Part shown: positions 15,030 through 32,228 of the stretch, in pieces | How the letters are laid out: every line of letters begins with the position of its first letter | Numbering within the stretch: the stretch's first letter is position 1 | DNA from: an uncultured virus (IMG/VR IMGVR_UViG_2061766007_004262) | Lineage: Duplodnaviria; Heunggongvirae; Uroviricota; Caudoviricetes | Length of the DNA stretch: 39,674 nucleotides | Virus record (IMG/VR): IMGVR_UViG_2061766007_004262 | Reading direction: 5' to 3' (one strand) | The notes under the pieces: generated by a model | Databases searched by the model: none | What the model was told of the DNA's origin: nothing | The model's input: only the letters and a program-made list of their open reading frames with translations | Position numbers and translations under genes: made by a program

Positions 15030-15112
15030 CTGACTGCACCTCCATTTCTTTTCAAATTCATGCGCAAATAGCTCCTTTCGTGTGATAGTAGAGGATGGAT
15101 TGGCCTCTCTAC

Positions 15113-15145: not shown

Positions 15146-15244
15146 CAGCATGGAGATTTACTTTTGTTTCGTCAAACGACTTCCGATTTATAAAAACGGC
15201 GTCGCGGTACATGAACCGTGACGCCTGTATTTTTTTGATGGCAT

Positions 15245-15277
15245 ACCGGAAACTCGGCTTCTTTGGCTACATAGCCG
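15245..15277 (+). promoter_or_regulatory. Bipartite motif ACCGGAAA-N11-TGGCTACATAGCCG, rightward copy
   Basis: Matches 15113-15145; a related CATAGCC precedes the RBS at 18468. Confidence 0.55.
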
Positions 15278-15290
15278 ATGNNNNNNNNNN

Positions 15291-16181: not shown

Positions 16182-16362
16182 TGAAAACCTCCTGTTTTCA
16201 AGGGCTCTTGGACTTTTGTCCTTTTGTCCGAAGTTTATAATGGGGATATACACATTTACAGAATGAATGAATAAGTCTTTTTTGCCTTTATTAAGGGGAG
16301 TGTGACAATGTGACAAAAGTCCGGAATGCCTGTATTTTCAAGGGTTCTTTTGCCGTGACAAT
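16138..16362. repeat. Clustered TTTGTCC and GTGACAA motifs, putative origin (allele 2)
   Basis: Four TTTGTCC facing three GTGACAA around an AT-rich core; same position as in allele 1. Confidence 0.5.
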
Positions 16363-17939: not shown

Positions 17940-18178
17940 NNNNNNNNNNNNNNNNNNNNNNNNNNNNNNNNNNNNNNNNNNNNNNNNNNNNNNNNNNNNN
18001 NNNNNNNNNNNNNNNNNNNNNNNNNNNNNNNNNNNNNNNNNNNNNNNNNNNNNNNNNNNNNNNNNNNNNNNNNNNNNNNNNNNNNNNNNNNNNNNNNNNN
18101 NNNNNNNNNNNNNNNNNNNNNNNNNNNNNNNNNNNNNNNNNNNNNNNNNNNNNNNNNNNNNNNNNNNNNNNNNNNNNN

Positions 18179-18446
18179 CGACACTGGACAACCTGAATGA
18201 AGTAGGAAAACAACTGGTCAGGTGCGGAGAAGAGTTGATACGGGCAGTGGCCCATGTGCAAGTCTGCTTCGCGCCTGATGAACAGGAAGCGCCTGACACA
18301 GGGAAGCGGGAAGAAGGCCCTGAACTAACAACATCGAAGACGTACACAAAAGAAGAGATCCGGGCGCTGCTGGCGGATCTCTCGCAGGCTGGCTTTCGAG
18401 AAGAAGCCAAAGCACTGGTCAAGAAGTACGCAAACGGCGGTAGCCT
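18179..18446 (+). CDS. Small phage replication-module protein, allele fragment
   Basis: Near-identical to 18605-18897. Confidence 0.6.
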
Positions 18447-18483
18447 NNNNNNNNNNCATAGCCAGTGAAAGGAGGTTCACGCG

Positions 18484-18651
18484 ATGGAGAACACGGCAAA
18501 TACAGCTGCCGAAGAGCAGGAGCTGATCGACGTGCTGATAGCAATCAGCGTCGTGGCAAAACGATTGGCAAGGAAACTGGAAAAACAGAGAAAGGAGTCA
18601 AATCATGAGCAAAATGAGCGAACTGGCAATGACACTGGACAACCTGAATGA
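18484..18651 (+). CDS. Small hypothetical phage protein (55 aa)
   Basis: RBS AAAGGAGG; MENTANTAAEEQELIDVLIAISVVAKRLARKL; not in the ORF track. Confidence 0.6.
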   Translation: MENTANTAAEEQELIDVLIAISVVAKRLARKLEKQRKESNHEQNERTGNDTGQPE

Positions 18652-18897
18652 AGTAGGAAAACAACTGGTCGGGTGCGGAGAAGAGTTGATACGGGCAGTG
18701 GCCCATGTGCAAGCCTGCTTCGCGCCCAACGAACAGGAAGCGCCTGACACAGGAAAGCAGGAAGAAGCCCCGGAAGTAACAACATCGAAGACGTACACAA
18801 AAGAAGAAATTCGGGCGCTGCTGGCGGATCTCTCGCAGGCTGGCTTCCGAGAAGAAGCCAAAGCACTGGTCAAGAAGTACGCAAACGGCGGTAGCCT
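18605..18897 (+). CDS. Small phage replication-module protein preceding DUF2800; C-terminus in fragment 19908-19971
   Basis: MSKMSEL...EEIRALLADLSQAG..EEAKALVKKY, then DIDPARYPAL. Confidence 0.65.
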
Positions 18898-18972
18898 NNN
18901 NNNNNNNNNNNNNNNNNNNNNNNNNNNNNNNNNNNNNNNNNNNNNNNNNNNNNNNNNNNNNNNNNNNNNNNN

Positions 18973-19897
18973 GATGGAGCAGCTGGCTGAAGCAAAGAAG
19001 CACTGCGCCGATCCCATCGTACTGGTGGAACAGCGGCTGGACTTCTCCCGCTGGGTGCCTGAAGGTTTCGGAACCGGGGATACCTGCATCGTGGCGGACG
19101 ATGTGCTTCACGTGATTGACCTGAAATACGGTGTAGGCATCCTGGTGAGCGCAGAACGCAATCCGCAAATGATGTGCTACACATTGGGCCTCCTGGAAGC
19201 CTTCGACGGAATCTATGATGTCCGCACGATAAGGATGAGCATCTTTCAGCCGAGACGGGAAAGTGTATCTACCTTCGAAATGAGCAAGGCTGACCTACTG
19301 AAGTGGGCAGAGACTGTTCTTCTACCAACAGCACAGTTAGCCTTCAAAGGCGAGGGCGAATTCCGCGCCGGGGAGCATTGCCAGTTCTGCAGTGTCAAAG
19401 CTACCTGCCGGAAACGGACGGAGTACAACCTGGAGATGGCCCGGTATGACTTTGAGGTTCCGTCCGAGCTCACCGATGATGAGATCGCATCGATTCTGCC
19501 CAGGATCGACGAGTTGATCGCGTGGGGCGGCGATGTGAAAGAATACGCGCTGCGGCAGGCGGTCTCAGGCACGCACTATCCCGGCTTCAAGGTTGTCGAG
19601 GGACGATCCGTCACCAAGTACACCGATGAAGAAGCCGCGGCCGCCNNNNNNNNNNTTCATGCCTGATCATGCTTTACTATCCGCTTCCTCCAGCCACCGC
19701 TGGCTGTCCTGTCCGCCCAGCGCTAAGCTCTGCGCGGCGCATCCTGATACCACATCGCCATATGCCCAGCAGGGTACGGAGGCGCACAGCCTTGCCGCTT
19801 ATAAGGTGATGAAGGCGCTTGGCATGGACGCAAAAGACCCGACCAGAAGCCTGGAGTTTTTCGATCAGGAGATGGCCGACTGCACGGATGCCTACTG
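18973..19897 (+). CDS. DUF2800 nuclease allele, two out-of-order fragments (18973-19645 and 19659-19897)
   Basis: Near-identical to parts of 19964-21097. Confidence 0.75.
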
Positions 19898-19963
19898 NNN
19901 NNNNNNNGACGGACATCGACCCGGCGCGCTATCCGGCCTTGGCGGAGGAGGCGCAAAAGTATC

Positions 19964-21097
19964 ATGCCTGATCATGCTTTACTATCCGCTTCCTCCAGCC
20001 ATCGCTGGCTGGCCTGCCCGCCCAGCGCAAAACTCTGCGCGGCGCATCCTGACAGAACATCGCCTTATGCCCAGCAGGGCACGGAAGCACACAGCCTTGC
20101 CGCTTATAAGGTGATGAAGGCTCTGGGCATGGACGCAAAAGACCTGACCGGGAGCCTGGAGTTTTTCGATCAGGAGATGGCCGACTGCACGGATGCCTAC
20201 TGCGCCTTTGTAATGGAGCAGCTGGCTGAAGCAAAGAAGCACTGCGCTGATCCCGTCGTACTGGTGGAACAGCGGCTGGACTTCTCCCGCTGGGTTCCGG
20301 AGGGTTTCGGTACCGGAGACGCCTGCATCGTGGCGGACGATGTTCTTCAGGTGATCGACCTTAAATACGGCGTCGGCATTCTGGTGAGCGCAGAACACAA
20401 CCCTCAGATGATGTGCTACGCGCTGGGGCTGCTCGAAGCCTATGACGGAATCTATGATGTCCGCACAATAAGGATGAGCATCTTTCAGCCGAGACGGGAA
20501 AATGAAACCAACTTCGAAATGAGCAAAGCTGACCTTCTGGGGTGGGCAGAGACTGTTCTTTTACCAACAGCACAGTTAGCCTTCAAAGGTGAGGGCGAAT
20601 TCCGCGCCGGGGAGCACTGTCAGTTCTGCAGTGTCAAAGCTACCTGCCGGAAACGGACGGAGTACAACCTGGAGATGGCCCGGTATGACTTTGAGGTTCC
20701 GTCCGAACTCACCAATGACGAGATCGCCGCAATCCTGCCCCGGATCGATGAGCTGATCGCGTGGGGCGGTGACGTGAAGGAGTATGCGCTGCGGCAGGCA
20801 GTCTCAGGCACGCACTATCCCGGCTTCAAGTTGGTCGAGGGACGATCCGTCACCAAATACACCGACGAAGAAGCCGCGGCAGCCGCGGTGAAAGCAGCAG
20901 GCGAAGACCCCTATGAAAGGAAGCTACTCGGCATCACAGCCATGAAGGCGCTTCTCGGAAGAAAACGATTCGACGAAATCTTGGGCGGGCTCACGTTCAA
21001 GCCGTCGGGAAAGCCAACCTTAGTACCTGAGTCGGACAAGCGTCCGGCCATGACTACAGCGAAAAACGATTTTGAGGAGGATACCATCCATGAGTAA
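19964..21097 (+). CDS. DUF2800-family PD-(D/E)XK (Cas4-like) phage nuclease
   Basis: HALLSASSSHRWLACPPS, GFGTGD, IDLKYG, NPQMMCY and C-x2-C-x5-C. Confidence 0.88.
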   Translation: MPDHALLSASSSHRWLACPPSAKLCAAHPDRTSPYAQQGTEAHSLAAYKVMKALGMDAKDLTGSLEFFDQEMADCTDAYCAFVMEQLAEAKKHCADPVVLVEQRLDFSRWVPEGFGTGDACIVADDVLQVIDLKYGVGILVSAEHNPQMMCYALGLLEAYDGIYDVRTIRMSIFQPRRENETNFEMSKADLLGWAETVLLPTAQLAFKGEGEFRAGEHCQFCSVKATCRKRTEYNLEMARYDFEVPSELTNDEIAAILPRIDELIAWGGDVKEYALRQAVSGTHYPGFKLVEGRSVTKYTDEEAAAAAVKAAGEDPYERKLLGITAMKALLGRKRFDEILGGLTFKPSGKPTLVPESDKRPAMTTAKNDFEEDTIHE

Positions 21098-21710: not shown

Positions 21711-23693
21711 ATGAAAACAATCTCAATAGACATAGAGACCCGGAGCAGCCTGGATCTCGGAAAATGCGGGGTTTATAAGTATGTCGAAAGTCCTGATTTC
21801 GATATCCTGCTCTTCGGATACGCCATTGACGGCGGCGATGTACAGGTTGTCGACCTGGCTTGCGGCGAGCAGATTCCGGAGGAAGTGCTGCAGGCAATCG
21901 TCGACGAATCTGTTTTGAAATGGGCGTATAATGCGTCTTTCGAGAGAATCTGCATGTCGAGATGGCTAAGGAAAAACAGGCCTGATCTGTTTCGGAGCTA
22001 CGGCGTACCGGAGGACACCGTGGGCAACTATCTCGATCCGCGGTCGTGGCGTTGCTCCCTAGTATGGTCGGCTTATCTGGGCCTGCCTTTGTCGCTGCAG
22101 GGCGTCGGTGCTGTGTTGAAACTGAATAACCAAAAAATGACAGAGGGCAAAGCGCTCATCCGCTATTTCTGCATGCCCTGCAAGCCGACGAACACAAACG
22201 GCGGCAGGACATGGAATCTGCCGGAGCATGCGCCTGACAAATGGGCGGTGTTTAAAGAGTATAACAAGCGCGATGTTGAGGTGGAAATGGCAATACAGAA
22301 AAAACTGTCCGGGTTTCCCGTCCCGGATTCCGTTTGGGAGGAATACCATCTGTCCGAAGAAATAAACGACAGAGGAATCTTGCTTGACAGAGAAATGGTC
22401 AGACAGGCCATTGCCCTTGACGATTTATCCCGGGACGAACTCTCCACTGAGATGCAGCGACTGACGCAGATGGAGAATCCAAACTCGGTAGCGCAGATGA
22501 AACAGTGGCTGGCCGATCACGGGATGGAGGTGGAATCGCTGGACAAAAAGGCTATAAAAGAGCTATTGAAAACAGCGCCTCCCGAGCTAGCCAAGGCTCT
22601 GGAGCTCCGTCAGCAGCTTGCCCGGTCGAGCGTGAAAAAATACATCGCAATGGAAAACTGTGTCTGCGCTGACGGACGGTGCCGCGGCATGTTCCAGTTC
22701 TATGGTGCGAACCGCTCCGGGCGATGGGCAGGCAGGCTGGTTCAATTGCAAAATCTTCCCCAGAATCATATACCTGACCTTGCCTCTGCTCGAGAACTTG
22801 TGAAAGCCGGGGACTACGAAATGCTAAGGCTGCTGTACGAAGATGTGCCCGACACACTCAGCCAGCTGATCAGGACAGCCTTTGTGCCGAAATCTGGGTA
22901 CAAGTTTATCGTCAGCGACTTCAGCGCTATTGAAGCGAGAGTGATCGCGCATCTGGCCGGTGAGACGTGGCGCACAGAAGTGTTCCGCAAAAATGGAGAT
23001 ATTTACTGTGCCAGCGCCAGCGCAATGTTCGGCGTACCCGTGGAAAAGCACGGCGTAAACGGGCATCTGCGCCAGAAAGGAAAGATAGCGGAACTGGCGC
23101 TTGGCTACGGCGGCAGCGTCGGCGCTTTGAAAGCGATGGGTGCGCTGGATATGGGATTAAAGGAAGAGGAGCTCCAGCCGCTGGTCAACGCGTGGCGGCA
23201 ATCCAATCCAAACATCGTGGCGCTATGGTGGGATGTGGACGACGCGGTGAAGCAGGCGATCCGTGGACAGACGATGACAGAAACGCACGGCTTACAATTC
23301 GTTTATAAGAGCAGCATGCTGTTCATACAACTCCCGTCCGGCAGGCGGCTGGCTTATGTGAAGCCAAAAATCGGTGTAAACAAGTTCGGCGGTGAATCTG
23401 TCACCTACGAAGGCGTCGGCACTATGAAAAAATGGGAGCGGATCGAAAGCTATGGTCCGAAGTTCGTTGAAAACATCGTGCAGGCGACCAGCAGAGACAT
23501 CCTGTGCTATGCAATGCAGACGCTGAGCCACTGTTTCATCTGCGGACACATCCACGATGAACTAATTATTGAGGCTGGCACCGGTGTGTACCTGCAGGCA
23601 GTTTGTGAGCAGATGGGCCGCGTTCCACCGTGGATTTCAGGGGCAGTATTGAGGGCGGATGGATATGAGTGCGAGTTTTATAAGAAAGACTGA
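21711..23693 (+). CDS. Phage family A DNA polymerase
   Basis: Exonuclease DIET and YNASFE; SGRWAG, DFSAIEARV, RQKGKIAELALGYG and HIHDE. Confidence 0.93.
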   Translation: MKTISIDIETRSSLDLGKCGVYKYVESPDFDILLFGYAIDGGDVQVVDLACGEQIPEEVLQAIVDESVLKWAYNASFERICMSRWLRKNRPDLFRSYGVPEDTVGNYLDPRSWRCSLVWSAYLGLPLSLQGVGAVLKLNNQKMTEGKALIRYFCMPCKPTNTNGGRTWNLPEHAPDKWAVFKEYNKRDVEVEMAIQKKLSGFPVPDSVWEEYHLSEEINDRGILLDREMVRQAIALDDLSRDELSTEMQRLTQMENPNSVAQMKQWLADHGMEVESLDKKAIKELLKTAPPELAKALELRQQLARSSVKKYIAMENCVCADGRCRGMFQFYGANRSGRWAGRLVQLQNLPQNHIPDLASARELVKAGDYEMLRLLYEDVPDTLSQLIRTAFVPKSGYKFIVSDFSAIEARVIAHLAGETWRTEVFRKNGDIYCASASAMFGVPVEKHGVNGHLRQKGKIAELALGYGGSVGALKAMGALDMGLKEEELQPLVNAWRQSNPNIVALWWDVDDAVKQAIRGQTMTETHGLQFVYKSSMLFIQLPSGRRLAYVKPKIGVNKFGGESVTYEGVGTMKKWERIESYGPKFVENIVQATSRDILCYAMQTLSHCFICGHIHDELIIEAGTGVYLQAVCEQMGRVPPWISGAVLRADGYECEFYKKD

Positions 23694-23763
23694 GGCTAAA
23701 CTCAAAAGTCTGGTCTCTTATATTGGCGATTACCTGATAAAATGAGGAATCGGTAAAGCACTA

Positions 23764-23841
23764 TGGGGTGCAAGAGCGGATTCGAACCGCTGACCTCCGG
23801 GGCCACAACCCGGCGCTCTAATCAACTGAGCTACCTGCACC
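23764..23841 (-). tRNA. tRNA-His(GTG) with encoded G-1 and CCA
   Basis: Cloverleaf G-GTGCAGG/CTTGCAC-C-CCA; anticodon arm CCGGG-TTGTGGC-CCCGG; TTCGAAT. Confidence 0.93.
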
Positions 23842-23849
23842 ATAACCAG

Positions 23850-23922
23850 TGCGCCTTCGGAGGCTCGGACTCCGGACCCTCGCATTAAAAGTGCGATGCT
23901 CTTCCAACTGAGCTAAAGACGC
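23850..23922 (-). tRNA. tRNA-Lys(TTT), atypical T-loop
   Basis: GCGTCTT/AAGGCGC-A; arm TCGCA-CTTTTAA-TGCGA; T-loop TCCGAGC; no CCA. Confidence 0.85.
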
Positions 23923-23928
23923 ATATTC

Positions 23929-24002
23929 CAGTTCCGACGGGGCTCGAACCCACGATCTCCTGCGTGACAGGCAGGCGTGATAGCCAACTTCACTACGGAA
24001 CT
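23929..24002 (-). tRNA. tRNA-Asp(GTC)
   Basis: AGTTCCG/CGGAACT-G; arm CCTGC-CTGTCAC-GCAGG; TTCGAGC; no CCA. Confidence 0.9.
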
Positions 24003-24011
24003 ATACTGTAA

Positions 24012-24085
24012 TGGCCCCTGCCGGATTCGAACCGAGCATTGCCGCCTTGAAAGGGCGGTGACCTGACCTGTTAGTCGAAGGGGTC
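24012..24085 (-). tRNA. tRNA-Glu(TTC)
   Basis: GACCCCT/AGGGGCC-A with a 2:71 mismatch; arm CCGCC-CTTTCAA-GGCGG; TTCGAAT. Confidence 0.85.
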
Positions 24086-24117
24086 ATGTCAGCCCTGTTG
24101 CCAGAGCTGAGGTCTAT

Positions 24118-24375
24118 TCATGCGGTGATTCGGGTCTGTTGTGCATTCCTTTGAAAAATGAGAATGTCGTCAATCCGTACCCCGAAAACCACTGCGAGAA
24201 CCACGAGATTGTCTACCGTCGGCAAGGCCGTTCCGCGCTGCCACTTGTATATAGCCTGCGGAGTGGTAAAACCGAAAATGTCCTGAAGGTCTCTCACTGT
24301 CATACCCGCGTTTACTCGCAAGCGGGTTATGTTTATTCCGGTTGCGGTCATGTCTATGACCGGTATCTGATTCAT
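24118..24375 (-). CDS. XRE-family helix-turn-helix protein
   Basis: NITRLR...TVRDLQ...TPQAIYKWQRG..LP.VDNL..LA; RBS AGGAG. Confidence 0.88.
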   Translation of the reverse strand: MNQIPVIDMTATGINITRLRVNAGMTVRDLQDIFGFTTPQAIYKWQRGTALPTVDNLVVLAVVFGVRIDDILIFQRNAQQTRITA

Positions 24376-24420
24376 TTTATTTCCGCTCCTGTTCCGGCGA
24401 AGAGCCGGAAAGGAACCGGC

Positions 24421-25617
24421 TCAGTTCGCCTTAAAGTTGTATATAGGTTTCAATACTTCTATGATGTCTACACTCTCACTGATCACATCGATGATGTCTG
24501 CCAGCGACTTATAAGCCATAGGCGCTTCATCCAGAGTGGCCTCACTGACTGACGTGGTGTACACACCGGCCATCTCTCTGCGGTATTCCTCCATGTCAAG
24601 GCGTTCTTTTGCCGCAGTACGCGACATGATGCGCCCAGCACCGTGAGGAGCAGAGAAGTTCCAGTCTTCATTACCCTTTCCGATGGCAAGAATACTCCCG
24701 TCGCGCATGTTGATGGGGATCAGTACCTTTTCACCTTTATGAGCAGCGATGGCACCTTTTCTGAGAATCATTTCATTGGTATCGATGTAGTTGTGGATGG
24801 TATGGAATGCATCCACAGGCTCGATCCCAAGGAGACCTGTAATGATCTCCGCCATCCGTTCCCTGCTTCTACACGCAAATCTCTGGCATATTTCCACATC
24901 ATGGAGGTAGTCCTCCAGATATTTGCCGTATACGAAGCAGAGATCCTCCGGAATGGTCGCCTCGCGTCTGTCCCATTTCAACGCCTTCAGCGCGCCTTCG
25001 ATTTCCTTGCGCCGGCCTGCCGCTTTGTATTCGGCAATAAGGGCATCACGCTTTGCGAAATACTCCTCCTTGCCTTTGTTCAGGTCAATGGCGAGCTGCT
25101 GGTAATATTCCTCTACCTGTTTTCCCAAATTACGGGAGCCGGAATGAATGACCAGGTATTTTGTACCGTCGGCTGCCCGGTCGATCTCTATAAAATGGTT
25201 CCCGCCGCCGAGCGTACCAAGGCTGCGCTCCAGGCGCTTTGAGTCTTTCAAACCGCGGAAGCAACGAAGATCCGTTAGATCGAAGCGTTCCTGCCGTCCT
25301 TCCCAGACATTCATGCCGGAAGGAATATAGTGCGCAGCCGCATCCATCTGCTCCATATCGATTTCCCCGCGTCCCAGGTTGACCGTGTACATGCCGCAGC
25401 CGATGTCAACCCCCACTACATTCGGGACAGCTTTATCGGTGACCGTCATGGTTGTGCCGATAGTGCATCCTTTTCCTGCATGGACATCAGGCATAATCCG
25501 AATACGGCTTCCCACAGTGAATTCATAGTCGCACATCCTGCGGATCTGCTCAATTGCTTCGTCCTCAATGACACTGGCATAGCAGAGAGCGGTATTTACT
25601 TTTCCTTTTATCTCCAT
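24421..25617 (-). CDS. rtcB: RtcB RNA ligase (398 aa)
   Basis: PDVHAGKG, GVDIGCG, GTLGGGNHF, HSGSRNLG, HNY, HGAGR and DEAPMAYK; start placed at MEIKG, downstream of the terminator. Confidence 0.95.
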   Translation of the reverse strand: MEIKGKVNTALCYASVIEDEAIEQIRRMCDYEFTVGSRIRIMPDVHAGKGCTIGTTMTVTDKAVPNVVGVDIGCGMYTVNLGRGEIDMEQMDAAAHYIPSGMNVWEGRQERFDLTDLRCFRGLKDSKRLERSLGTLGGGNHFIEIDRAADGTKYLVIHSGSRNLGKQVEEYYQQLAIDLNKGKEEYFAKRDALIAEYKAAGRRKEIEGALKALKWDRREATIPEDLCFVYGKYLEDYLHDVEICQRFACRSRERMAEIITGLLGIEPVDAFHTIHNYIDTNEMILRKGAIAAHKGEKVLIPINMRDGSILAIGKGNEDWNFSAPHGAGRIMSRTAAKERLDMEEYRREMAGVYTTSVSEATLDEAPMAYKSLADIIDVISESVDIIEVLKPIYNFKAN

Positions 25618-25648
25618 CGTCTTTATCACTTCCCTGTGTTTGTACGTG

Positions 25649-25684
25649 AAAAAACCGCCTGCCTCATACAAGGCAAGCGGCTTT
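25649..25684 (-). terminator. Intrinsic terminator (attenuator) just upstream of rtcB
   Basis: GCCGCTTGCCTT-GTAT-GAGGCAGGCGGT then TTTTT. Confidence 0.85.
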
Positions 25685-25707
25685 GAGTCTATTTGATCCC
25701 GGCTTTT

Positions 25708-25830
25708 CTAAACCATGCAGCCATGCTTCTTTGCCTTATATGAGAGCGCGAAAAGACTATCCAGGTGTTCATCACTGGACAGGCATTCAGGGTGCTCTTT
25801 ATTTGGCATAACGAAGCAAACGGTAAGCAT
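25708..25830 (-). CDS. Putative 40-aa leader peptide of the rtcB operon
   Basis: RBS GAAAGGA; MLTVCFVMPNKEHPECLSSDEHLDSLFALSYKAKKHGCMV; lies between promoter and terminator and contains the antiterminator strand. Confidence 0.7.
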   Translation of the reverse strand: MLTVCFVMPNKEHPECLSSDEHLDSLFALSYKAKKHGCMV

Positions 25831-25871
25831 GTCTATTCCTTTCCGGGCGGTTGCCCTTTTGTTTTGCACAT

Positions 25872-25900
25872 ACTATAGCACTGATTTCCCGACTTGTAAA
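25872..25900 (-). promoter_or_regulatory. Sigma-70/SigA promoter of the leader-rtcB operon
   Basis: TTTACA-17 bp-TATAGT with extended TG. Confidence 0.75.
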
Positions 25901-25944
25901 TAAACCTGTAGTATAAAATCTGATTCTTAACTTTTTGATGCAAG

Positions 25945-26016
25945 TTAACCGATTTCCCAAATCACGGTCACTGTATCGGCAACTTCAATATCGTCCGGTT
26001 TGATGTCCATGTCATA
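25945..26016 (-). pseudogene. C-terminal remnant of a SIMPL/DUF541-like gene
   Basis: YDMDIKPDDIEVADTVTVIWEIG-stop resembles the SIMPL C-terminus; no upstream body. Confidence 0.45.
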
Positions 26017-26048
26017 AACGAGTATACAGGCAATCACACATAGAGTTT

Positions 26049-26819
26049 TCATGAATCCAATACTGAATATTTTATATCGTGACATATCTCCATCCACTTG
26101 TTGCTTAAATCATGATTCAGTCTTTCAAACAGTTTACTATCAAGCCTAACTTTGAAATATGCCTTAGATATTTCATACTCCAACGCGTATGTAAAAGCTG
26201 TGACCTCGTTTTCTTTGTTGCATATCCCAACAGAGATGAAAGACTTGTATAAAGCATCATAAAAGCTTGCTATCAAGTTTCGGAAGCGTAGTAGTTTAAT
26301 TGCATCTTCAATGAAATATACGGTTAGTGCAGACTGAACAATAATTATTAAAAGACTAGGATCATCAATCCAAAACATAGCAGAGAACATCACAATAACA
26401 CAAAGAATAGCTTTTATTGCCGCAGACGAAAGCATTTTAGATGCAATTTCCCTTGAAAAAAAAGCACTCTCCATACTGTTAGCGGCAAATTTCCCCATTG
26501 AAGGAGGCAATGTATTATTATAATAACCATCTGTCCTCAATTCGCTAAGTTGAACACTAAATGCATTCTCGATGTCATTCTTTCTACGTTCAGCCTCAGC
26601 ATTGTACCAAGAAAAGGAATCGTCTAATACTGTGAGAACTAAAAAAAGGAAAGCTGATATACCTTGGATAGAAGCACCTGCCTTTATAATTATATCCGCT
26701 TGGGGTAAAAATGGAAAGGCTATTCCGATAATAATATTAACCCAGAAAAACAACAGGGCCATTCTCTGCAATGCTTTTGATTGGTCATAGAATTTGCGAA
26801 TATCATCACGATTGCTCAT
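26049..26819 (-). CDS. SMODS-associated 4TM (S-4TM-like) CBASS membrane effector
   Basis: Two pairs of hydrophobic helices, AE.ERR and GYYNN motifs; 3 bp downstream of the nucleotidyltransferase. Confidence 0.7.
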   Translation of the reverse strand: MSNRDDIRKFYDQSKALQRMALLFFWVNIIIGIAFPFLPQADIIIKAGASIQGISAFLFLVLTVLDDSFSWYNAEAERRKNDIENAFSVQLSELRTDGYYNNTLPPSMGKFAANSMESAFFSREIASKMLSSAAIKAILCVIVMFSAMFWIDDPSLLIIIVQSALTVYFIEDAIKLLRFRNLIASFYDALYKSFISVGICNKENEVTAFTYALEYEISKAYFKVRLDSKLFERLNHDLSNKWMEICHDIKYSVLDS

Positions 26820-26822
26820 TTT

Positions 26823-27596
26823 TCATACCTCCGGAAAAGCTTTCTTTATCTCGGCATCTGCTGAAAAAGGCATATTACTCGCTTCATATTCCAGTGCTTT
26901 ATCTATATGATTGAGAGCAGACTGCACTCTAGTATAATCGGTTTTGTATTTGATTGCTTTCAGAGCACATTTTATGTAATCGACGTACATTGAGCATGAC
27001 CCATAAGCATACATTAAATCATTGGATACTGTTTCTTCTAGTAAGTATGATGCCATGTCTCGGTAGTTTTTATTCACGTTCCAGTGCTTTAGTAGGCGTA
27101 AAACAGGCTTAACTCTATATCTGTTGTTACGATTTGAAGAATTCACTGTGTCTTTAAGAGCATCTGGGTTAGTGTATTTCCATTCTGAAGCACCTTCAGG
27201 TATATAATATGATCCATGTTCTTTCTGCGCAGGAACCAACTCAAATTTGATGTGGTTTAGTTCGAGGACAATCGTTGGGCTTGATTGATATATTTCTGAG
27301 GAAGAATAGTAATGCTCCGCAAACTTCTTAAGTCGATTCAAATAAGTCTGAGGCTTATATCCATTCGCATTATCGAACACCACCATGATATCAACATCAG
27401 AATCATCATCAGATTTACGCGTTAGAATTGTATCTCTGTCATATGAACCAAATACTTTTTTTTCGATGATTTCTATGCCGAAGTAAAATGTGAGCCGCGA
27501 TTTGATGGTAGTAATAGAAGTCTCAATTCTATTTTCTTCGGAATCAACTACGCATAAATCAGTAGCGAGAGTTTGTAGATACGAATTAATACTCAT
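26823..27596 (-). CDS. SMODS/CD-NTase-family nucleotidyltransferase (CBASS cyclase)
   Basis: FGSYDRDT...SDVDIMVVF, FELVPA, W.YTNP, RLLKHWN and SYLLE. Confidence 0.85.
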   Translation of the reverse strand: MSINSYLQTLATDLCVVDSEENRIETSITTIKSRLTFYFGIEIIEKKVFGSYDRDTILTRKSDDDSDVDIMVVFDNANGYKPQTYLNRLKKFAEHYYSSSEIYQSSPTIVLELNHIKFELVPAQKEHGSYYIPEGASEWKYTNPDALKDTVNSSNRNNRYRVKPVLRLLKHWNVNKNYRDMASYLLEETVSNDLMYAYGSCSMYVDYIKCALKAIKYKTDYTRVQSALNHIDKALEYEASNMPFSADAEIKKAFPEV

Positions 27597-27690
27597 ACTA
27601 ATCCTCCGAGATCATAAACTTAGTACGTGAAAGTTCTATATCGTTTCCTTCTTCTCTCAACCTTTAGGCTGATGTTCGGAAGAGGATCGA

Positions 27691-28191
27691 TTAGCGTTTT
27701 GGAATTTTCGTGCTTTTGATCTTGATGCCCAAGGCAACCGCACCGAGAAGAAGTGCGCTACCTATAAACCAAGTGATGTATTTTGTCATGCCCGCGAGTA
27801 AGCCTTTATTTTTCGTGTCGAATGAAGCCATGTTGTCAGCTACATTTACCATCTTCTCCGCAAAGTAACGCCTGTCTGCAGGATCAAGCTTCTCATCCAA
27901 GGCAAGGCCACCAAGAGTGTTCAGCGTCTGCTTGTATCCTTCCATCACGTACCGGACGCTGTCACCATTTTCTCTGAGGATTGATTCGCACATTGTTTCG
28001 TAGTGGCTAACCAAGCTCATTGCACATCTTGTGAATTCAGGAAACTGTTCGATTATTCTGATGGCTACGTCCTTGTCCATCTCAGGTATCGCCGAAACAA
28101 ACTCAATCAGCTTATCCTTACTGAGATGGCGGAAGTCGGTGATGTTGAGATATTGTTTTACCTGTTCTGCTGTCAGCAGGCGATTCACCAT
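27691..28191 (-). CDS. Hypothetical protein with C-terminal membrane anchor
   Basis: 166 aa from the ATG 8 nt after GGAGG; ITWFIGSALLLGAVALGI plus a basic tail. Confidence 0.7.
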   Translation of the reverse strand: MVNRLLTAEQVKQYLNITDFRHLSKDKLIEFVSAIPEMDKDVAIRIIEQFPEFTRCAMSLVSHYETMCESILRENGDSVRYVMEGYKQTLNTLGGLALDEKLDPADRRYFAEKMVNVADNMASFDTKNKGLLAGMTKYITWFIGSALLLGAVALGIKIKSTKIPKR

Positions 28192-28224
28192 AGACATTAC
28201 CTCCGATACGTTATTGTGTCGGCA

Positions 28225-28303: not shown

Positions 28304-28332
28304 TTGACAAACAGCAATAGATGTGATAATAT
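28304..28332 (+). promoter_or_regulatory. Sigma-70 promoter (rightward)
   Basis: TTGACA-17 bp-TAATAT with extended TG. Confidence 0.65.
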
Positions 28333-28370
28333 TTGAATACAATTTGGAATTTCAAGAGGAGAGGTGCCAT

Positions 28371-29798
28371 ATGAAGCCGCGTGAAGGGCATAAACTTCCG
28401 ACAGTTAGAATCACAAGAATCGAATTAGAAAATTTCAAGAGTGTTCGTCACGGTGAAATCGTTTTTAGTTGCGGGCGAAAGTTCGTTCCTCAAGATACAG
28501 AGTCAGACATCCTAGGCATCTATGGACAGAATGGCTCTGGCAAAACAGCCGTTATTGAAGCTATTGCTATTTTGAAACGTGCTATGAGTGGGGTGAAGAT
28601 TCCTGATCGTTATTCCGAATGCATTGCCGATGGCGCAGAGTATGCTCAGTTGTCTTTTACATTTGATTTTCAATATGATACCGTGGAAGCTTTTAGTCGA
28701 ACAGTCACATATAGCTTCAAAATCATGGCGATTGAGAACGACAACAAAGACGATAACGAATCACTAAGCCTTTCTTCTGTGACTTATCCAAAGAAAGTAA
28801 GACTCTTTGATGAAGTTATCAGTGCAGCTGGTCTTTTTGACGGAGAGATTCAGAAAAAGCAAGACATCCTGACAACATTTGATGGGAACTATCCAATAGG
28901 ACCAACAAGAAAAGTCTCACTTTATGTTGGGGCAGACAAAGATAGCTTTGCAGTAACCCTTGGTGTAAACAAAAAAACGGCAGAAATAAATGCAAAGTCG
29001 TTCATTTTTCTTGATGAGACTTTGAAACTGTTCAATGAGCAATCTGGGTACTCCGAATACTTTCAAATTCTTATTGAACTTAATCACTATGCTAAGTTCT
29101 ATTTGTATGCTGTTGACACACGCTTATCTGCTACTGCCCTGTCGGTTCCGCTCAACACTCGATTTGGCGTGTTGTTCTTGAATCTTCTGGGTACATCAGA
29201 GATGCCGAATGAGATATTTGATGATCTCACATTCTTTGTAAAGGGCATTAACACTGTTTTACCTACCATTGTCGCAGACATGGAACTTGTTCTGGAGCAT
29301 GAAGATTTTGCTTCGGAGAAGAGGCAGGGACAAGAAGTAAGCTTGTATTCGAAGAGGAAGGATACTATTATTCCTTTAAGAGATGAGTCTGCCGGTATAA
29401 TAAAACTAATCAGTGTCTTGTCCTTGATTATTTCTGCATTTAATGATCGTTCTATCACTGTGGCAGTCGATGAACTCGATGCAGGCATTTATGAGTATCT
29501 TCTTGGTGAGATTCTTTCTGGATTTGAAACTTATGGAAAAGGTCAGTTCATTTTTACTTCCCATAATCTGCGACCTTTAGAGGTTCTTAAGAAGGAAAAC
29601 CTGATTTTCACTTCTACTAATCCGAATAATCGCTATATTCGCCTGAAAGGAGTTGGAAAGACTAACAACCTCCGAAATCTCTATCTTAGAGAAATACTCG
29701 GCAATACTCAAGACGAGCAAATCTATGATGCGGCGAAGAAGCAGCGCATGATTGCTGCGTTTATGAAAGCGGGTGTTGGTCTTGGCGAGAAGAAATAA
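28371..29798 (+). CDS. ABC-type ATPase of the AAA_15/AAA_21 defence-associated class
   Basis: IELENFKS, Walker A GQNGSGKT, signature ESAG, Walker B VAVDELD, H-loop FTSHN; RBS GAGGT. Confidence 0.88.
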   Translation: MKPREGHKLPTVRITRIELENFKSVRHGEIVFSCGRKFVPQDTESDILGIYGQNGSGKTAVIEAIAILKRAMSGVKIPDRYSECIADGAEYAQLSFTFDFQYDTVEAFSRTVTYSFKIMAIENDNKDDNESLSLSSVTYPKKVRLFDEVISAAGLFDGEIQKKQDILTTFDGNYPIGPTRKVSLYVGADKDSFAVTLGVNKKTAEINAKSFIFLDETLKLFNEQSGYSEYFQILIELNHYAKFYLYAVDTRLSATALSVPLNTRFGVLFLNLLGTSEMPNEIFDDLTFFVKGINTVLPTIVADMELVLEHEDFASEKRQGQEVSLYSKRKDTIIPLRDESAGIIKLISVLSLIISAFNDRSITVAVDELDAGIYEYLLGEILSGFETYGKGQFIFTSHNLRPLEVLKKENLIFTSTNPNNRYIRLKGVGKTNNLRNLYLREILGNTQDEQIYDAAKKQRMIAAFMKAGVGLGEKK

Positions 29799-30325
29799 GC
29801 GAGAAAAGCTGGAACCGAATACTATCGTTTTCCTTGTAGAGGGTGATAGTGACAAAATTGCTCTGGAACTCCCTTTATCTGACTTGATTGATCAGAAACA
29901 TCCAGAGTATCATGTTCGCTTTCTTCTTCAGGAACGAAGAATAAGCCAAACAGGTGACGAAGTCGACGATTCAGACGATGACAGCGAAGAGTTAATAGAA
30001 GATGATTGCGAAGTAGAACCAGGCGGGGACATTACCACTAGTTCTTTTGTAACGCCGGAAAACATCGAAGTAAAAATCACAAACCGATTTATTATGCCTG
30101 CAGTCCGGAAAGAAGGGATATATCCCAAGCGAATCGCAAGGATCATCCACATTGTTGATCTTGACGGAGCATATCTCCCAGACACAAGCATAATACCCTT
30201 TTCATTTGAACGTCAAGCAAATGAACGCCCGTTTTATGATGGTGAGAGGGGTGTAATTGAAACATCAAATGTACCGGGTATTATAGGTCGCAATGACAGA
30301 AAAAGAAAGAATCTTGAATATCTAT
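29782..30325 (+). CDS. Toprim-fold partner protein, interrupted by an IS21-type end at 30326
   Basis: IVFLVEGDSD and HIVDLDG motifs; overlaps the ATPase stop. Confidence 0.7.
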
Positions 30326-30375
30326 TGCGTACGCCGTTGAAATTGAGCGTCAAAACCGGCGAATTTGAGCATCGA
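30326..30375 (+). mobile_element. IS21-type element left end inserted in the Toprim gene
   Basis: 50 nt identical to 30791-30840. Confidence 0.7.
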
Positions 30376-30385
30376 NNNNNNNNNN

Positions 30386-30609
30386 CTGTAAGAGCAGACG
30401 ACAATATCTACTGGATGGCGGAGGACGCCAGGATATTCAATTATATCTACCCAGCATGGGAAAAGGATGATTTCATCGCGTGGGCGCACAAGGAAAAACA
30501 CTCCTCATTCATTCCTATATCGACAGTTGACTGTGATTTCGTGAATTTGGCCTGTACCTCTGATGATATCGACAGCATCCGAGCTGCCTTTGAGGGTATT
30601 ATAGAATAA
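30386..30609 (+). CDS. Hypothetical protein, C-terminal fragment
   Basis: Open frame ending AFEGIIE-stop; separate fragment, not shown to belong to the Toprim gene. Confidence 0.4.
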
Positions 30610-30790: not shown

Positions 30791-31392
30791 TGCGTACGCC
30801 GTTGAAATTGAGCGTCAAAACCGGCGAATTTGAGCATCGATTCCGCAGAGATTGCGCAAGCTTTCCGCTGTAATTGGGCAGTGCTTCCGCGCAGGTTGAA
30901 TATGCGGTTTTGCATGCGGATTGCGCAATGCTCTCCAGTAGCACTCTCCCTGGAAAACCTTAAAGCGAAAAACCTCGGGTCNNNNNNNNNNGAGCCGGAA
31001 AGGTGCGTACGCCGTTGAAATTGAGCGTCAAAACCGGCGAATTTGAGCATCGANNNNNNNNNNATTGGAAATATTTATGTTGTCCCTGTTGGAAGAGTTC
31101 TGGCAGGGGCGTTTATTTACTAAGAACACGTTAAGCCACCCATATGTGTCTCCAGTAGCACTCTCCCTGGAAAACCTTAAAGCGAAAAACCTCGGGTCTG
31201 GGCAGAGCCCAGTGAGCCACAGGCTCTGAGAAGAGCAAATCGCTGTTGTTGGAAAGCTGCATAACCTCTCTCGATAGACTTTTTTCTATGCCTGATAGCG
31301 TTCCTAAACGTGCACGGAAGCTGCGCTCAATCCGCGCGGAAACGATGCTCAATTGGCCCGGTGGCGATGCTCAACCTCACGCGGAATACTCA
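30791..31392. mobile_element. Non-autonomous IS21-family element (about 385 bp when overlapping fragments are merged) with 5-bp target duplication
   Basis: TG...CA ends, imperfect IR (TGCGTA/TGAGTA) with repeated TTGAGC boxes, GATAC at 30786-30790 and 31393-31397; fragments overlap at 30932-30981 and 31149-31198. Confidence 0.72.
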
Positions 31393-31452
31393 GATACAAT
31401 TGCAACCCGGTTCCAGTCCTGTATCCTGCACCCGGTTGCATCNNNNNNNNNN

Positions 31453-32228
31453 GAAAGGTGCGTGTGCGGAAGAAGTACTTAAAGGATTCAGCGGAGTACT
31501 GGTCGCGGACGGATACAGCGGGTACAATGTAGTAAGCAAAGTCACCCGGGCAGGCTGCTGGGCGCACGCGAGACGGAAATGGCTGGAAGCGATGCCAAAG
31601 GACGCGACGAAAGAGAATTCCCTGGCTGTCAGGGGCCTCGAATACTGCTCAAGGCTGTTTGAACTGGAGCGGGAATACGAAGAATTGTCCGATGCTGAGC
31701 GCCGAAGACAGCGCCTGCTTCGTTCGAAGCCCATAGTAGATGAGTATTACGCCTGGCTCGGGACGATGTTCAAGCCAAGCGGNNNNNNNNNNGTAGCTTC
31801 GCTCAAAGCCAATAGTAGATGAGTATTACGCCTGGCTCGTGATGATGTTCAAGCCGAGCGGTAAACTGAGAGACGCTGTAACCTACGCCTTAAACCAGCG
31901 GAAGTATTTATGCACCTTTCTGGAACATGGCGAGATCGAGATCAGCAACAACCAGGTGGAGAACGCCATCCGCCCGATCGTCGTCGGCCGTAAGAACTGG
32001 CTGTTTGCCGACACCCCCGACGGGGCACGGGCAAGCACGGTCATATTCACTGTTTTGGAGACAGCCAAAGCGAATGGGCTGAACCCCGAAAAGTACATCG
32101 GTCATCTGCTGACAGTACTGCCGGAGCGTTTTGAGCATGATCCAAAACCGCAGATCGACGACCTGCTGCCCTGGGCTGATGGGCTGAGAGAACTCTGCCG
32201 GGCGTAGTGTGGATTATTTAGCGCTTAC
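31453..32228 (+). mobile_element. tnpC: IS66-family element: 3' part of the transposase and right end
   Basis: ADGYSGY, CWAHARRK, ISNNQVENAIRP...GRKNWLF, ETAKANGLNP and LLPW; terminus CGCTTAC. Confidence 0.9.

Follow-up and report, generated by a model that had tools for sequence, protein, structure and literature searches.

Transcription attenuators that work through a leader peptide are known from amino-acid operons (trp, his, leu, thr, ilv and pheA) and also from pheST. In Firmicutes, ribosome-mediated attenuators accompany resistance genes such as bmrCD (PMC4191407) and mef/mel (PMC4335068). In Pseudomonas aeruginosa, the leader peptide PA5471.1 controls armZ (PA5471), which encodes an RtcB-like RNA ligase, and the review that describes this system states that the attenuation mechanism of armZ still awaits confirmation (PMC12057347). 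RNA repair genes and tRNA genes are also linked to stress in other ways. RtcR and sigma-54 control rtcBA in Salmonella and E. coli (Hughes et al. 2020, PMC7790460), the L-array (trn operon) of Anabaena sp. PCC 7120 is induced together with rtcB by translational stress (Santamaria-Gomez et al. 2021, PMC8421152), and phage tRNAs counter tRNA-targeting defences (van den Berg et al. 2023, PMC10264068). A full-text search of the main texts of papers, largely from outside subscription journals, returned no leader-peptide attenuator before tRNA arrays and no codon-matched control of such an array; a Deinococcus paper that came up in the search is unrelated to leader control of rtcB.

Here, we analysed a 39,674-nucleotide stretch of DNA from an uncultured virus of the Caudoviricetes (IMG/VR IMGVR_UViG_2061766007_004262), hereafter the window, in which a short leader and a terminator precede rtcB. 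A first-pass annotation had read this leader as an attenuator of the trp/his type and knew of no described rtcB control of this kind. The second statement needs qualifying: leader-peptide control of the RtcB-like armZ has been published (PMC12057347). The first is supported by related loci, in which the ORF is kept, the helices covary and the leader codons track the tRNAs. We consider the element quite likely to be a transcription attenuator that depends on the ribosome and a leader peptide and senses when the tRNA species encoded by its own operon run short.

Results

The leader heads an operon of an RNA ligase, an HTH protein and tRNAs

The genes downstream of the leader are:

24421..25617, minus strand: rtcB, RNA 3'-phosphate/5'-OH ligase (Pfam RtcB PF01139, 2.4e-54; PHROG tRNA splicing ligase, 3.7e-124)
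24118..24375, minus strand: Xre-type HTH gene, 84-85 aa (Pfam HTH_3, 2.8e-08)
23764..24086, minus strand: tRNA array of Glu-UUC, Asp-GUC, Lys-UUU and His-GUG (ARAGORN; Rfam tRNA, 47-65 bits)

The RtcB product aligns to solved RtcB chains, including Pyrococcus RtcB, over three conserved stretches, which we take to be the metal-binding and histidine-containing catalytic motifs. Its gene is surrounded by the HTH gene, the tRNAs and CBASS genes, the CBASS cyclase and effector lying upstream of the leader on the same strand. Among the window proteins scanned (14 Pfam, 33 PHROGs), there was no RtcR, sigma-54 activator or RtcA.

No gene of the operon is more constant than the HTH gene, which is also the sole protein gene common to rtcB-bearing and rtcB-less operons. 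Homologues with 61-93% identity (37 distinct sequences) follow the leader or rtcB in other loci, and PHROGs group the protein with phage repressors and regulators. The array of the window holds four tRNAs; those of its relatives, on phage-like contigs, hold 15-21, and tRNA-Glu-UUC comes first in 29 of the 30 arrays behind main-family leaders. One leader (L176) is directly followed by a tRNA, 15 nt past its profile match. The leader heads a mobile operon made up of an optional rtcB, the HTH gene and a tRNA array, and many copies have no rtcB. The description of the element as an rtcB attenuator holds insofar as it precedes rtcB in the window, but it is not specific to rtcB.

A promoter, a short ORF and a terminator precede rtcB

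The leader contains the following features, from the promoter to the terminator:

25872..25917, minus strand: promoter and conserved box (the box merges into the -35; 17-nt spacer; TG-extended -10)
25837..25856, minus strand: small 5' hairpin, then RBS (25844-25837, purine-rich, 6 nt before the leader ATG)
25708..25830, minus strand: leader ORF of 40 codons plus stop (ATG at 25830, stop at 25710-25708)
25792..25820, minus strand: region 1, putative anti-antiterminator, pairing with region 2 in the MFE fold of the full leader
25759..25800, minus strand: candidate sensing codons 11-24, of which 8 of 14 are readable by the four tRNAs of the operon
25759..25780, minus strand: central hairpin within the ORF (fold and family alignment)
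25731..25744, minus strand: region 2, antiterminator strand (codons 29-33 and the first base of codon 34)
25649..25684, minus strand: intrinsic terminator, composed of regions 3 and 4 and the U run (15-bp stem and 4-nt loop at 25684-25651, U run to 25649)
25663..25676, minus strand: region 3, partner of region 2 (terminator 5' arm, loop and first three bases of the 3' arm)

A promoter scan places the -35 hexamer at 25900-25895 and the -10 hexamer at 25877-25872; the two match the consensus at 10 of 12 positions, and a TG precedes the -10. Promoter-like sites overall show no excess over chance in this 4-kb scan (8 found vs 6.4 +/- 2.4 in shuffles), and the scan lists none between the terminator and rtcB. 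The box, the -35 and the -10 recur in the upstream regions of related loci, and the conserved box abutting the -35 is a candidate operator. The promoter, RBS and 40-codon ORF reported on the minus strand by the first-pass annotation are all where it placed them, as judged from the sequence and the promoter scan. Its remark that the ORF was absent from the ORF track is correct for the start codon only: the frame is listed at 25708-25869 as 53 aa, from an upstream GTG and not from the ATG of the 40-codon ORF.

The terminator, which the same annotation had put about 30 nt before rtcB, ends in a U run that stops 31 nt short of the rtcB ATG (25617). Its fold of -23.8 kcal/mol (z -5.69) was equalled by none of 200 shuffles; a simple pattern scan did not list it on the minus strand. 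Positions 25744-25731 can pair with 25676-25663 over 14 bp, one of them G-U, which confirms the proposed helix that overlaps the 5' arm and loop of the terminator and excludes it. The best duplex between the ORF and the terminator arm has -19.8 kcal/mol, an energy equalled by 4 of 500 shuffled ORFs. The full leader folds at -77.7 kcal/mol (z -4.37), and 0 of 200 shuffles were as stable. Among Rfam families, including T-box, the four tRNAs are the only matches in 22000-28000 at E up to 1.

Folding at equilibrium with the ribosome footprint masked is noisy and yielded the complete classical pattern for 10 of 48 leaders. For the window leader, 11 antiterminator pairs still form in such folding when the ribosome is masked at the stop codon, and in a run with a shorter 5' end the antiterminator was predicted even without a ribosome.

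The ORF and its helices are conserved in a family of leaders

The leader profile matches 72 of 233 fetched loci at E<1e-20. The short ORF is preserved in 68 of 70 leaders at a length of 33-48 codons, with 57 distinct peptides and ATG start codons apart from one GTG; the other two frames are open to the same extent in 12 of 68 cases. In 56 of the 57 distinct leaders, the ORF has the same frame with respect to the antiterminator strand. Gaps within the ORF in alignment A1 are all multiples of three, bar a 1-nt gap in L132, where the frame shifts yet stays open and the bases of the antiterminator strand are kept while the frame over them differs. The variability shows no three-base periodicity (codon positions 1.145, 1.037 and 1.131).

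Homology to related loci sets in immediately before the -35, about 300 nt from the rtcB ATG, and excludes the upstream CBASS genes. Upstream neighbours differ among loci that share the conserved block, and the promoter-leader-terminator unit also precedes HTH-tRNA operons in other contexts. The hairpin/RBS block was found in 10 of 10 leaders retrieved via RtcB alone; its invariance in the metagenome loci is by construction, because the block was part of the search pattern.

We counted pairing across 31 sequences of the family. RNAalifold on a MAFFT alignment recovered only the terminator and the central hairpin, and the long-range helices were therefore specified by hand for the counts of pairing and covariation. 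The terminator is 98.5% paired, and the central hairpin 93.5%; in the latter, 3 of 4 pairs show two-sided changes. Pairing in the antiterminator helix stands at 94.9%, and 5 of its 14 pairs are altered on both sides in a compensatory manner, so the covariation sought in relatives is present. The structure containing the antiterminator is 95.0% paired, compared with 25-44% in slid controls of the same whole structure. The family helices between regions 1 and 2, 1a and 1b, are 71% and 78% paired, which suggests moderate support for this proposed pairing. Judged by energy alone, the antiterminator duplex of divergent viral leaders does not exceed chance, with shuffles matching it in 150/500 (L241), 90/500 (L249), 76/500 (L235) and 38/500 (L243) cases.

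Where is this leader found? It has no match in E. coli genomes and is absent from the phage and plasmid collections, which yielded only distant rtcB and tRNA matches. Searching viral contigs with RtcB alone gave 32 loci at 40-65% identity, none of them among the leader-profile matches, and a single match to the leader pattern in viral contigs (L233) was judged to be chance. Among 80 rtcB loci from the genome collection, the main-family leader is confined to those with RtcB of about 77-88% identity, and many rtcB genes of the set have no upstream terminator.

Leader codons match the tRNAs of the array

The leader of the window contains 12 Lys, Glu, His or Asp codons among 40, and 8 among the 14 of codons 11-24. 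These counts and the identities of the four downstream tRNAs (Glu, Asp, Lys and His) were given correctly by the first-pass annotation; the enrichment that it drew from them holds in part. Against a background K+E+H+D share of 20.5% (17 window proteins), 12 of 40 is not significant (p=0.10), and finding any 14-codon window with at least 8 such codons has p=0.024. All four array anticodons are covered by the leader; its rank against same-locus windows is modest, with a joint share of 0.034. The excess is weak in the window alone, and the case rests on its relatives.

Across the family, we scored leader codons 2-27 in 14 leader/array pairs, each with an array that ends within its locus. A decodable leader codon exists for 100 of 104 distinct array anticodons in frame, compared with 37 in the +1 frame and 58 in the +2 frame, and 149 of 364 codons are decodable in frame, compared with 49 and 78 in the other frames. 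When leaders and arrays were re-paired at random, mean coverage was 0.77 vs 0.98 observed, and 0 of 20000 shuffles reached the observed value. Leader codons thus co-vary with the tRNA set. These permutation p-values overstate independence because leader/array pairs share descent; the result also holds for nine lineage representatives, a partial cure. Leader coverage was matched by none of the 26-codon windows from long open frames of the same locus (0/439 for L051, 0/409 for L114 and 0/458 for L147).

Individual loci illustrate the match. In the divergent viral leader L241/L246, 15 consecutive codons use only Glu, His, Tyr and Leu; its array contains only Glu, His, Tyr and Leu tRNAs, and three Leu codons fit three Leu anticodons. 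Among three related viral leaders, Cys codons occur within codons 2-27 only in the two whose array has a tRNA-Cys. Aligned family positions hold Lys in 32 of 56 leaders, Glu in 40, Tyr/His in 49 and Glu/Asp in 46, and the conserved Glu is written as GAG in 21 leaders and as GAA in 19, so the meaning of the codon is kept and not the base. Loci without a tRNA array (L033, L048, L056, L057 and others) retain the same Lys-Glu-His/Tyr block, and leader codons therefore cannot merely mirror co-encoded tRNAs.

Tests by amino acid were mixed overall. We ranked leaders on each locus's own amino-acid set, and the number of others, out of 53, that equalled or exceeded the own leader was 0 for L036, 2 for the window, 3 for L162, 3 for L051, 6 for L114, 8 for L184, 21 for L158, 22 for L163 and 26 for L147. 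Presence/absence tests were significant for Trp, Asp, His, Gln and Leu and not significant for Cys, Lys, Tyr, Phe, Asn, Met, Arg and Ser.

Discussion

Across its relatives, the leader is written in the codons of the tRNAs of its operon, and it therefore probably switches the operon on when ribosomes run short of the tRNAs that read these codons. We infer that the leader is translated, in which direction the switch works and what triggers it. Transcription would begin at the conserved promoter, and the 40-codon leader would be translated. If the ribosome moves fast or never loads, the antiterminator strand would be covered or held by region 1, the terminator at 25684-25649 would form and transcription would halt 31 nt before rtcB. 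If the ribosome lingers in the first ~25 codons, it would mask region 1, the antiterminator would pair with the 5' arm of the terminator and RNA polymerase would read through into the operon. The slow-down would be set by the codons in these first ~25, which across the family are those read by the downstream-encoded tRNAs, and the device would thus report shortage of exactly those species. The response would consist of fresh copies of the short tRNAs and a ligase able to reseal cut ones, and the gated unit would be an operon for translation rescue, carried by the phage and encoding the RtcB ligase, the small HTH protein and spare tRNAs. Damage to tRNA is only one possible cause of the sensed shortage; cleavage, depletion or demand could act alike. 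Transcription-translation coupling is loose in at least some Firmicutes, and pausing may be needed for such a switch.

Could the leader respond to something other than these tRNAs? Any slowing of the ribosome, by antibiotics, ribosome damage or starvation, might cause read-through, with the codon identities uninformative. Such an attenuator would have the same architecture, it has published precedents in PA5471.1-armZ (PMC12057347) and in the antibiotic-sensing leaders of Firmicutes, and the Anabaena tRNA array and rtcB are described as induced by translation inhibitors (PMC8421152). Operons without tRNA genes keep the same codon block, and the enrichment in the window is weak. We nevertheless find this account rather unlikely, because the codon match is specific to the frame (100/104 vs 37 and 58) and to the locus (0/20000 shuffled pairings), and the L241/L246 leader is built almost solely of the four amino acids of its array. 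It is also not exclusive of the codon-matched reading, as a codon-matched leader would also answer general slowing.

The strong leader structure (z -4.37), the nucleotide-level conservation without codon periodicity and the retention of antiterminator bases in L132 despite its different frame would suit a structured RNA switch with a small molecule, a protein or a tRNA as its ligand and an incidental ORF. The ORF, start codon and RBS are, however, kept in 68 of 70 leaders with indels in frame, the codon match is confined to the ORF frame, and no Rfam family, including T-box, matches the leader (22000-28000, E up to 1), all of which make an RNA switch very unlikely. We give equally little credence to the proposal that the HTH regulator is the main output and that, through the leader, the state of host translation feeds into a phage decision such as induction or superinfection control, rtcB and the tRNAs being passengers. 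It draws on the HTH gene as the only one common to rtcB-bearing and rtcB-less operons (61-93% identity), on the conserved box abutting the -35 and on the PHROGs class of phage repressors and regulators, but it leaves the codon-anticodon match unexplained, and leader L176 is followed directly by a tRNA. Finally, the terminator might merely end the CBASS operon, whose cyclase and effector lie upstream on the same strand, with rtcB read from phage promoters and with promoter, ORF and complementarity due to chance, as promoter-like matches in the scan are not above chance. This is barely credible: the conserved block begins at the promoter while upstream neighbours vary by locus, the promoter-leader-terminator unit precedes HTH-tRNA operons elsewhere, and no promoter-like site lies between the terminator and rtcB.

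If the codon-matched attenuator operates as proposed, it would provide a concrete mechanism for silencing and switching on mobile tRNA arrays and RtcB. Published studies of how tRNA arrays and rtcB respond to translational stress leave the sensing step open, as far as the available text goes (PMC8421152). RNA repair and tRNA supply would be tied directly to the speed at which ribosomes read, leader codons would offer a sequence-only clue to which tRNAs a phage expects to lose, and the leaders would be natural parts for sensors of tRNA availability. These findings also bear on the long debate over why phages carry tRNAs. A broader idea, which we regard as plausible and hold only tentatively, is that phages and prophages carry the leader as a decoding test track that lists about one codon per downstream tRNA, on which the ribosome reads out attack on, or exhaustion of, host tRNAs and thereby makes the supply of tRNAs and RtcB self-limiting. 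The trigger might then be, for example, the anticodon nuclease of a defence system, and supply would stop once decoding is restored. Conditional tRNA supply and repair would in that case amount to a counter-defence module that is general and regulates itself, and would add a new class of cargo to attenuation.

How does this element compare with known systems? Like the amino-acid attenuators, it combines a short, presumably translated leader, an intrinsic terminator, an exclusive antiterminator, a putative upstream sequestering strand and codons tied to what the operon supplies. Unlike them, its cargo consists of tRNA genes, an RNA ligase and an HTH protein instead of biosynthetic enzymes, and its codons are mixed, about one per tRNA species (up to 17 of 18 anticodons), instead of a run of a single codon. 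Its leader of 33-48 codons has its stop downstream of the antiterminator strand, and the element resides on phage-like DNA of Clostridia. With PA5471.1-armZ, likened here by description, it shares a leader peptide and downstream terminators before an RtcB-like gene, and stalling-linked read-through has been proposed there (PMC12057347). However, that system answers ribosome-targeting drugs, and the available text describes neither codon-matched logic nor tRNA genes (PMC12057347). The bmrCD and mef/mel attenuators, as described, resemble it in leader ORF, alternative terminator and antiterminator folds, Gram-positive bacteria and mobile elements, but sense drug-stalled ribosomes, whereas the codon list here is matched to co-encoded tRNAs.

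Systems that share the cargo differ in their control. The Anabaena L-array is one of the supernumerary tRNA arrays that have spread horizontally, stay silent as long as translation is intact and have a co-regulated or neighbouring rtcB; its control lies in direct repeats over the -10 and start site and a presumed repressor, and the available text of that paper does not contain the words attenuat-, leader or terminator (PMC8421152). Here, by contrast, control would lie in a leader ORF and terminator, with rtcB within the same operon. The RtcR/sigma-54 system likewise switches on RNA repair genes in response to a tRNA-damage signal (PMC7790460), but its sensor is described as a protein that binds tRNA fragments, whereas we propose the translating ribosome. 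Lastly, phage-borne tRNA sets have been viewed, as here, as replacing cut or depleted host tRNAs; the work described there concerns the tRNAs themselves (PMC10264068), whereas the operon described here carries a putative sensing leader before its array.

Anatomy of the leader

The first-pass annotation described a promoter, a ribosome-binding site, a 40-codon ORF, a terminator and a 14-bp alternative helix on the minus strand ahead of rtcB, and each of these observations was confirmed. The features of the leader and operon are as follows.

25900-25895 and 25877-25872 (-): sigma-70-type promoter, -35 and TG-extended -10, 17-nt spacer, 10/12 consensus matches
25844-25837 (-): purine-rich ribosome-binding site, preceded by a small hairpin (sequence reading)
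25830 to 25710-25708 (-): leader ORF, 40 codons, ATG to stop (sequence reading)
25792-25820 (-): region 1, predicted to pair with region 2
25744-25731 (-): region 2, the antiterminator strand
25676-25663 (-): region 3, the partner of region 2 in the terminator
U run ending at 25649 (-): intrinsic terminator, 15-bp stem and 4-nt loop (folding)
ATG at 25617 (-): rtcB (Pfam 2.4e-54; PHROG 3.7e-124), its conserved stretches aligned to solved RtcB
Downstream of rtcB (-): Xre-type HTH gene, 85 aa
Downstream array: tRNA-Glu-UUC, Asp-GUC, Lys-UUU and His-GUG
Beyond the tRNAs, convergent: phage DNA polymerase gene

The terminator folds at -23.8 kcal/mol (z -5.69; equalled by 0/200 shuffles); a simple pattern scan for terminators missed this hairpin, and folding detected it. 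Its U run ends 31 nt before the rtcB ATG, and a promoter scan found no promoter-like sites between the two. The entire leader reaches -77.7 kcal/mol (z -4.37), a structure that 0/200 shuffles attain. The 14 nt of region 2, within the ORF, are complementary to region 3 with one G-U pair. Region 3 spans much of the terminator 5' arm, the loop and the first bases of the 3' arm, and the two helices are therefore mutually exclusive. By energy, the pairing of the ORF with the terminator arm was matched by just 4 of 500 shuffled ORFs. A conserved box at 25901-25917 (-) abuts the -35 and is also found in upstream regions of the family; the HTH protein encoded in the operon is a candidate to bind it. 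Read from the listing rather than counted, promoter and adjoining box recur across the leader family.

A conserved unit with a kept frame and covarying helices

An RtcB-based scan, limited to one genome per species, retained 80 loci from 218 relatives; these 80 come mostly from rumen and gut Clostridia MAGs, with a top RtcB identity of 88%. In BLAST, the region upstream of rtcB in the window matched five loci (L033, L052, L050, L051 and L057) over 335-346 nt at 66-77% identity, and four others in part (L056, L036, L055 and L048). Homology in each matched locus starts a short way upstream of the -35, some 300 nt ahead of the rtcB ATG; on sequence comparison, the leader block is a conserved unit beginning at the promoter. 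At least 120 stretches of metagenome contigs matched a two-block pattern. RtcB was matched in 30 of the 121 loci tested (the 120 pattern stretches listed and the viral locus L233), and among the matches listed its distance downstream from the pattern was 228-370 nt in 28 of the 30. A profile built from 31 aligned leaders matched 72/233 loci at E<1e-20.

Of 70 leaders, 68 retain an ORF 33-48 codons long that extends across the antiterminator strand (57 distinct peptides); it starts with ATG in all but one, which has GTG. Its frame relative to the antiterminator strand is common to 56/57 distinct leaders, the exception, L132, being shifted and still open. Alternative frames are open equally far in just 12/68 cases (both other frames of 34 distinct leaders). 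Alignment gaps within the ORF are of 3 or 6 bases, except for a single-base gap in L132, and those past the stop codon have many lengths. As a point against a translated ORF, its variability showed no three-base periodicity (mean entropies 1.145, 1.037 and 1.131), which argues that the peptide is not conserved as a protein. Leader peptides usually are not, and much of the leader's conservation lies at the RNA level.

Across the 31 aligned sequences, the antiterminator helix is 94.9% paired and both partners vary at 5 of the 14 base pairs, one of them occurring as G-C in 18, G-U in 7 and A-U in 6. Together with the central hairpin it is 95.0% paired; shifting the partners by 1-3 columns lowers this to 25-44%, and 0/500 shuffles reach the observed pairing or covariation score. 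In the same sequences the terminator is 98.5% paired, the central hairpin 93.5%, and the two helices between regions 1 and 2 are 71% and 78% paired. The pattern used for searching constrained part of region 2 but no position in region 3, so the antiterminator pairing was not built in.

Leader codons and array tRNAs

The annotation's counts of Lys, Glu, His and Asp codons are right: 12/40 overall and 8/14 in codons 11-24. These residues make up 20.5% of 17 window proteins, which leaves the whole-leader excess at p=0.10, and a 14-codon stretch with at least 8 such codons occurs in 2.4% of random 40-mers. The window by itself does not prove codon matching.

The match is apparent across relatives. 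We compared 14 leader/array pairs whose array ends inside the locus, nine from the main family and five divergent viral ones. Leader codons 2-27 contain at least one decodable codon for 100 of 104 distinct anticodons; of the four uncovered, L051 has one and L234 three. Coverage is 15/15 in L114, 17/18 in L051, 8/8 in L240, 7/7 in L147, L241 and L243, 6/6 in L235, 5/5 in L258, 4/4 in the window and 13/16 in L234. Shuffled pairings gave a mean coverage of 0.774 against the observed 0.983 (0/20000 reach it), and with nine lineage representatives 0.743 against 0.994 (again 0/20000); the 14 pairs share ancestry, so these shuffles overstate independence. The +1 and +2 frames of the same bases cover 37 and 58 of the 104 anticodons, and decodable codons number 149/364 in frame against 49 and 78 in the other frames. 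This frame-specific match, read from sequence, independently supports the reading frame.

Within loci, 26-codon windows of long open frames equalled the leader's coverage in 0/439 cases for L051, 0/409 for L114 and 0/458 for L147, and the decodable fraction of L241 in 0/413. The window's own leader is modestly unusual by this measure (joint share 0.034). The clearest single case is the L241/L246 leader, in which 15 consecutive codons are all Leu, Tyr, Glu or His; the array holds solely Glu, His, Tyr and Leu tRNAs, and three adjacent Leu codons fit three Leu anticodons. Among three related viral leaders, Cys codons occur in codons 2-27 of both whose arrays include tRNA-Cys and are absent from this stretch in the one whose array does not. 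The main family carries a block of Lys, Glu, His/Tyr, any residue and Glu/Asp (32, 40, 49 and 46 of 56 at the four fixed positions), whose first Glu alternates between GAG (21) and GAA (19). Loci lacking tRNA genes retain this block, which counts against simple matching, and amino-acid-level tests of leader against array gave mixed results.

Operon composition and neighbourhood

In many profile-matching leaders without rtcB, the terminator is followed directly by an 84-aa HTH gene and, behind it, a tRNA array, of 15 tRNAs in L114, 21 in L134, 17 in L119 and 7 in L147, L148 and L165; in L176 a tRNA begins 15 nt past the profile match. By gene content, the leader heads an operon in which rtcB is optional. 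The constant protein member is the HTH protein (37 distinct sequences, 61-93% identity), homologues of which also occur in loci with rtcB and no tRNAs. tRNA-Glu-UUC comes first in 29/30 arrays behind main-family leaders. Viral contigs scanned with an HTH profile yielded 25 loci, and tRNAs follow the HTH gene in 11, which places the module on phages. In L113 and L149, which have leader and terminator, neither an HTH gene nor a tRNA was found within ~2.4 kb downstream.

In two loci, a tRNA gene follows the terminator and precedes the first protein gene. In L038 (2885-2957) ARAGORN calls it Lys-UUU; in L236 (near 1284) the call is an odd Pro-AGG, and by eye the sequence resembles a Lys-type anticodon loop carrying an insertion. 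L238 has an unusual array set (Gly, Pro, Tyr, Ser, Leu, Arg, Lys and Thr), and at 5661-6000 a second ribosome-binding site and an ORF of 39 codons separate its terminator from the HTH gene, an arrangement that may represent tandem attenuators.

The window is phage-like, with head-tail adaptor, major tail, tape-measure, helicase, primase, exonuclease and SSB genes. Directly upstream of the leader on the same strand lies a low-GC (36-40%) CBASS pair at 26049-27596 (-), comprising an oligonucleotide cyclase (PADLOC 5.5e-84, Pfam SMODS) and a 4TM effector (1.1e-42). A 35-codon ORF at 25945-26052 (-) overlaps the effector stop through an ATGA junction; it has a hydrophobic, Cys-containing N-terminus and no family match. 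Further upstream, a 168-aa ORF (27691-28197, -) is without family matches. Beyond CBASS on the other strand, 28323-30609 (+) contains a 491-aa AAA ATPase (AbiLi 4.6e-30, AriA 6.3e-14), overlapped and followed by a 278-aa ORF without matches; this AbiL/AriA-like ATPase is a candidate second defence system near the tRNA/RtcB operon. Replication genes at 10371-21097 form near-duplicate sets (two each of phrog_62 helicase pieces, phrog_93 endonucleases, phrog_2373 helicase/primase and DUF2800 exonucleases), which may represent two neighbouring related elements, a duplication or an assembly join. Two adjacent ORFs at 31310-32207 (+) match successive parts of transposase family phrog_688 and look like a split or frameshifted transposase.

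Limits from folding

By energy, the best ORF-terminator duplex was no better than chance in 4/5 divergent viral leaders tested, being equalled by 150 of 500 shuffles in L241, 90 in L249, 76 in L235 and 38 in L243; L258 and the window stand out at 4/500 each. We also folded 48 leaders with masked ribosome footprints, at equilibrium and with automatic region calls; a real switch would be kinetic. Under these conditions the antiterminator did not form in the absence of a ribosome in 36/48, formed at 70% or more of the stall positions (codons 5-17) in 22/48, and did not form with a ribosome on region 2 in 48/48 by our cut-offs. Just 10/48 combine all three. The window passes the cut-offs for all three in equilibrium folding, with up to 7 antiterminator pairs remaining when a ribosome covers region 2 and 11 allowed when it sits at the stop codon. 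Folding from a shorter 5' end predicted the antiterminator with no ribosome present.

A proposed mechanism and its relation to known systems

The first-pass reading of the leader as an attenuator is supported by the observed anatomy, conservation, covariation and codon match across relatives, not by the window alone: homologous loci keep the short ORF, the antiterminator helix covaries, and leader codons co-vary with the tRNA set. We infer that the leader is translated, and likewise the direction of the switch and its trigger. A ribosome lingering in roughly the first 25 codons would mask region 1, freeing region 2 to capture the emerging terminator 5' arm, and transcription would continue through rtcB, the HTH gene and the tRNAs. 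A ribosome running on would cover region 2 while the terminator is made, and transcription would stop; it would also stop if no ribosome were loaded and region 1 held region 2. With its sensing stretch composed of the codons that the operon's tRNAs read, the leader would respond to the decoding rate for those species, and new tRNAs would restore that rate and shut the operon off. RtcB would add repair if the shortage stems from cleavage that leaves joinable ends. Sequence comparison thus supports control of a mobile tRNA and RtcB operon by leader-peptide attenuation, a reading that merits experimental testing.

Classical amino-acid attenuators follow the same logic. Compared with them, the cargo here is different, the codon list is mixed and the stop codon lies downstream of the antiterminator strand. 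No publication describing tRNA arrays under the control of a leader-peptide attenuator came up in a full-text literature search, with most subscription journals outside its reach. Translational stress in Anabaena induces rtcB together with a tRNA array gained by horizontal transfer, via promoter repeats, and attenuation does not figure in that account (PMC8421152). The first-pass belief that no such control of rtcB had been described needs correction. In P. aeruginosa, armZ, listed in a 2025 review as an RtcB-like RNA ligase, is preceded by the leader peptide PA5471.1 and downstream terminators (PMC12057347), and PA5471.1-armZ responds to drug-stalled ribosomes (PMC12057347).
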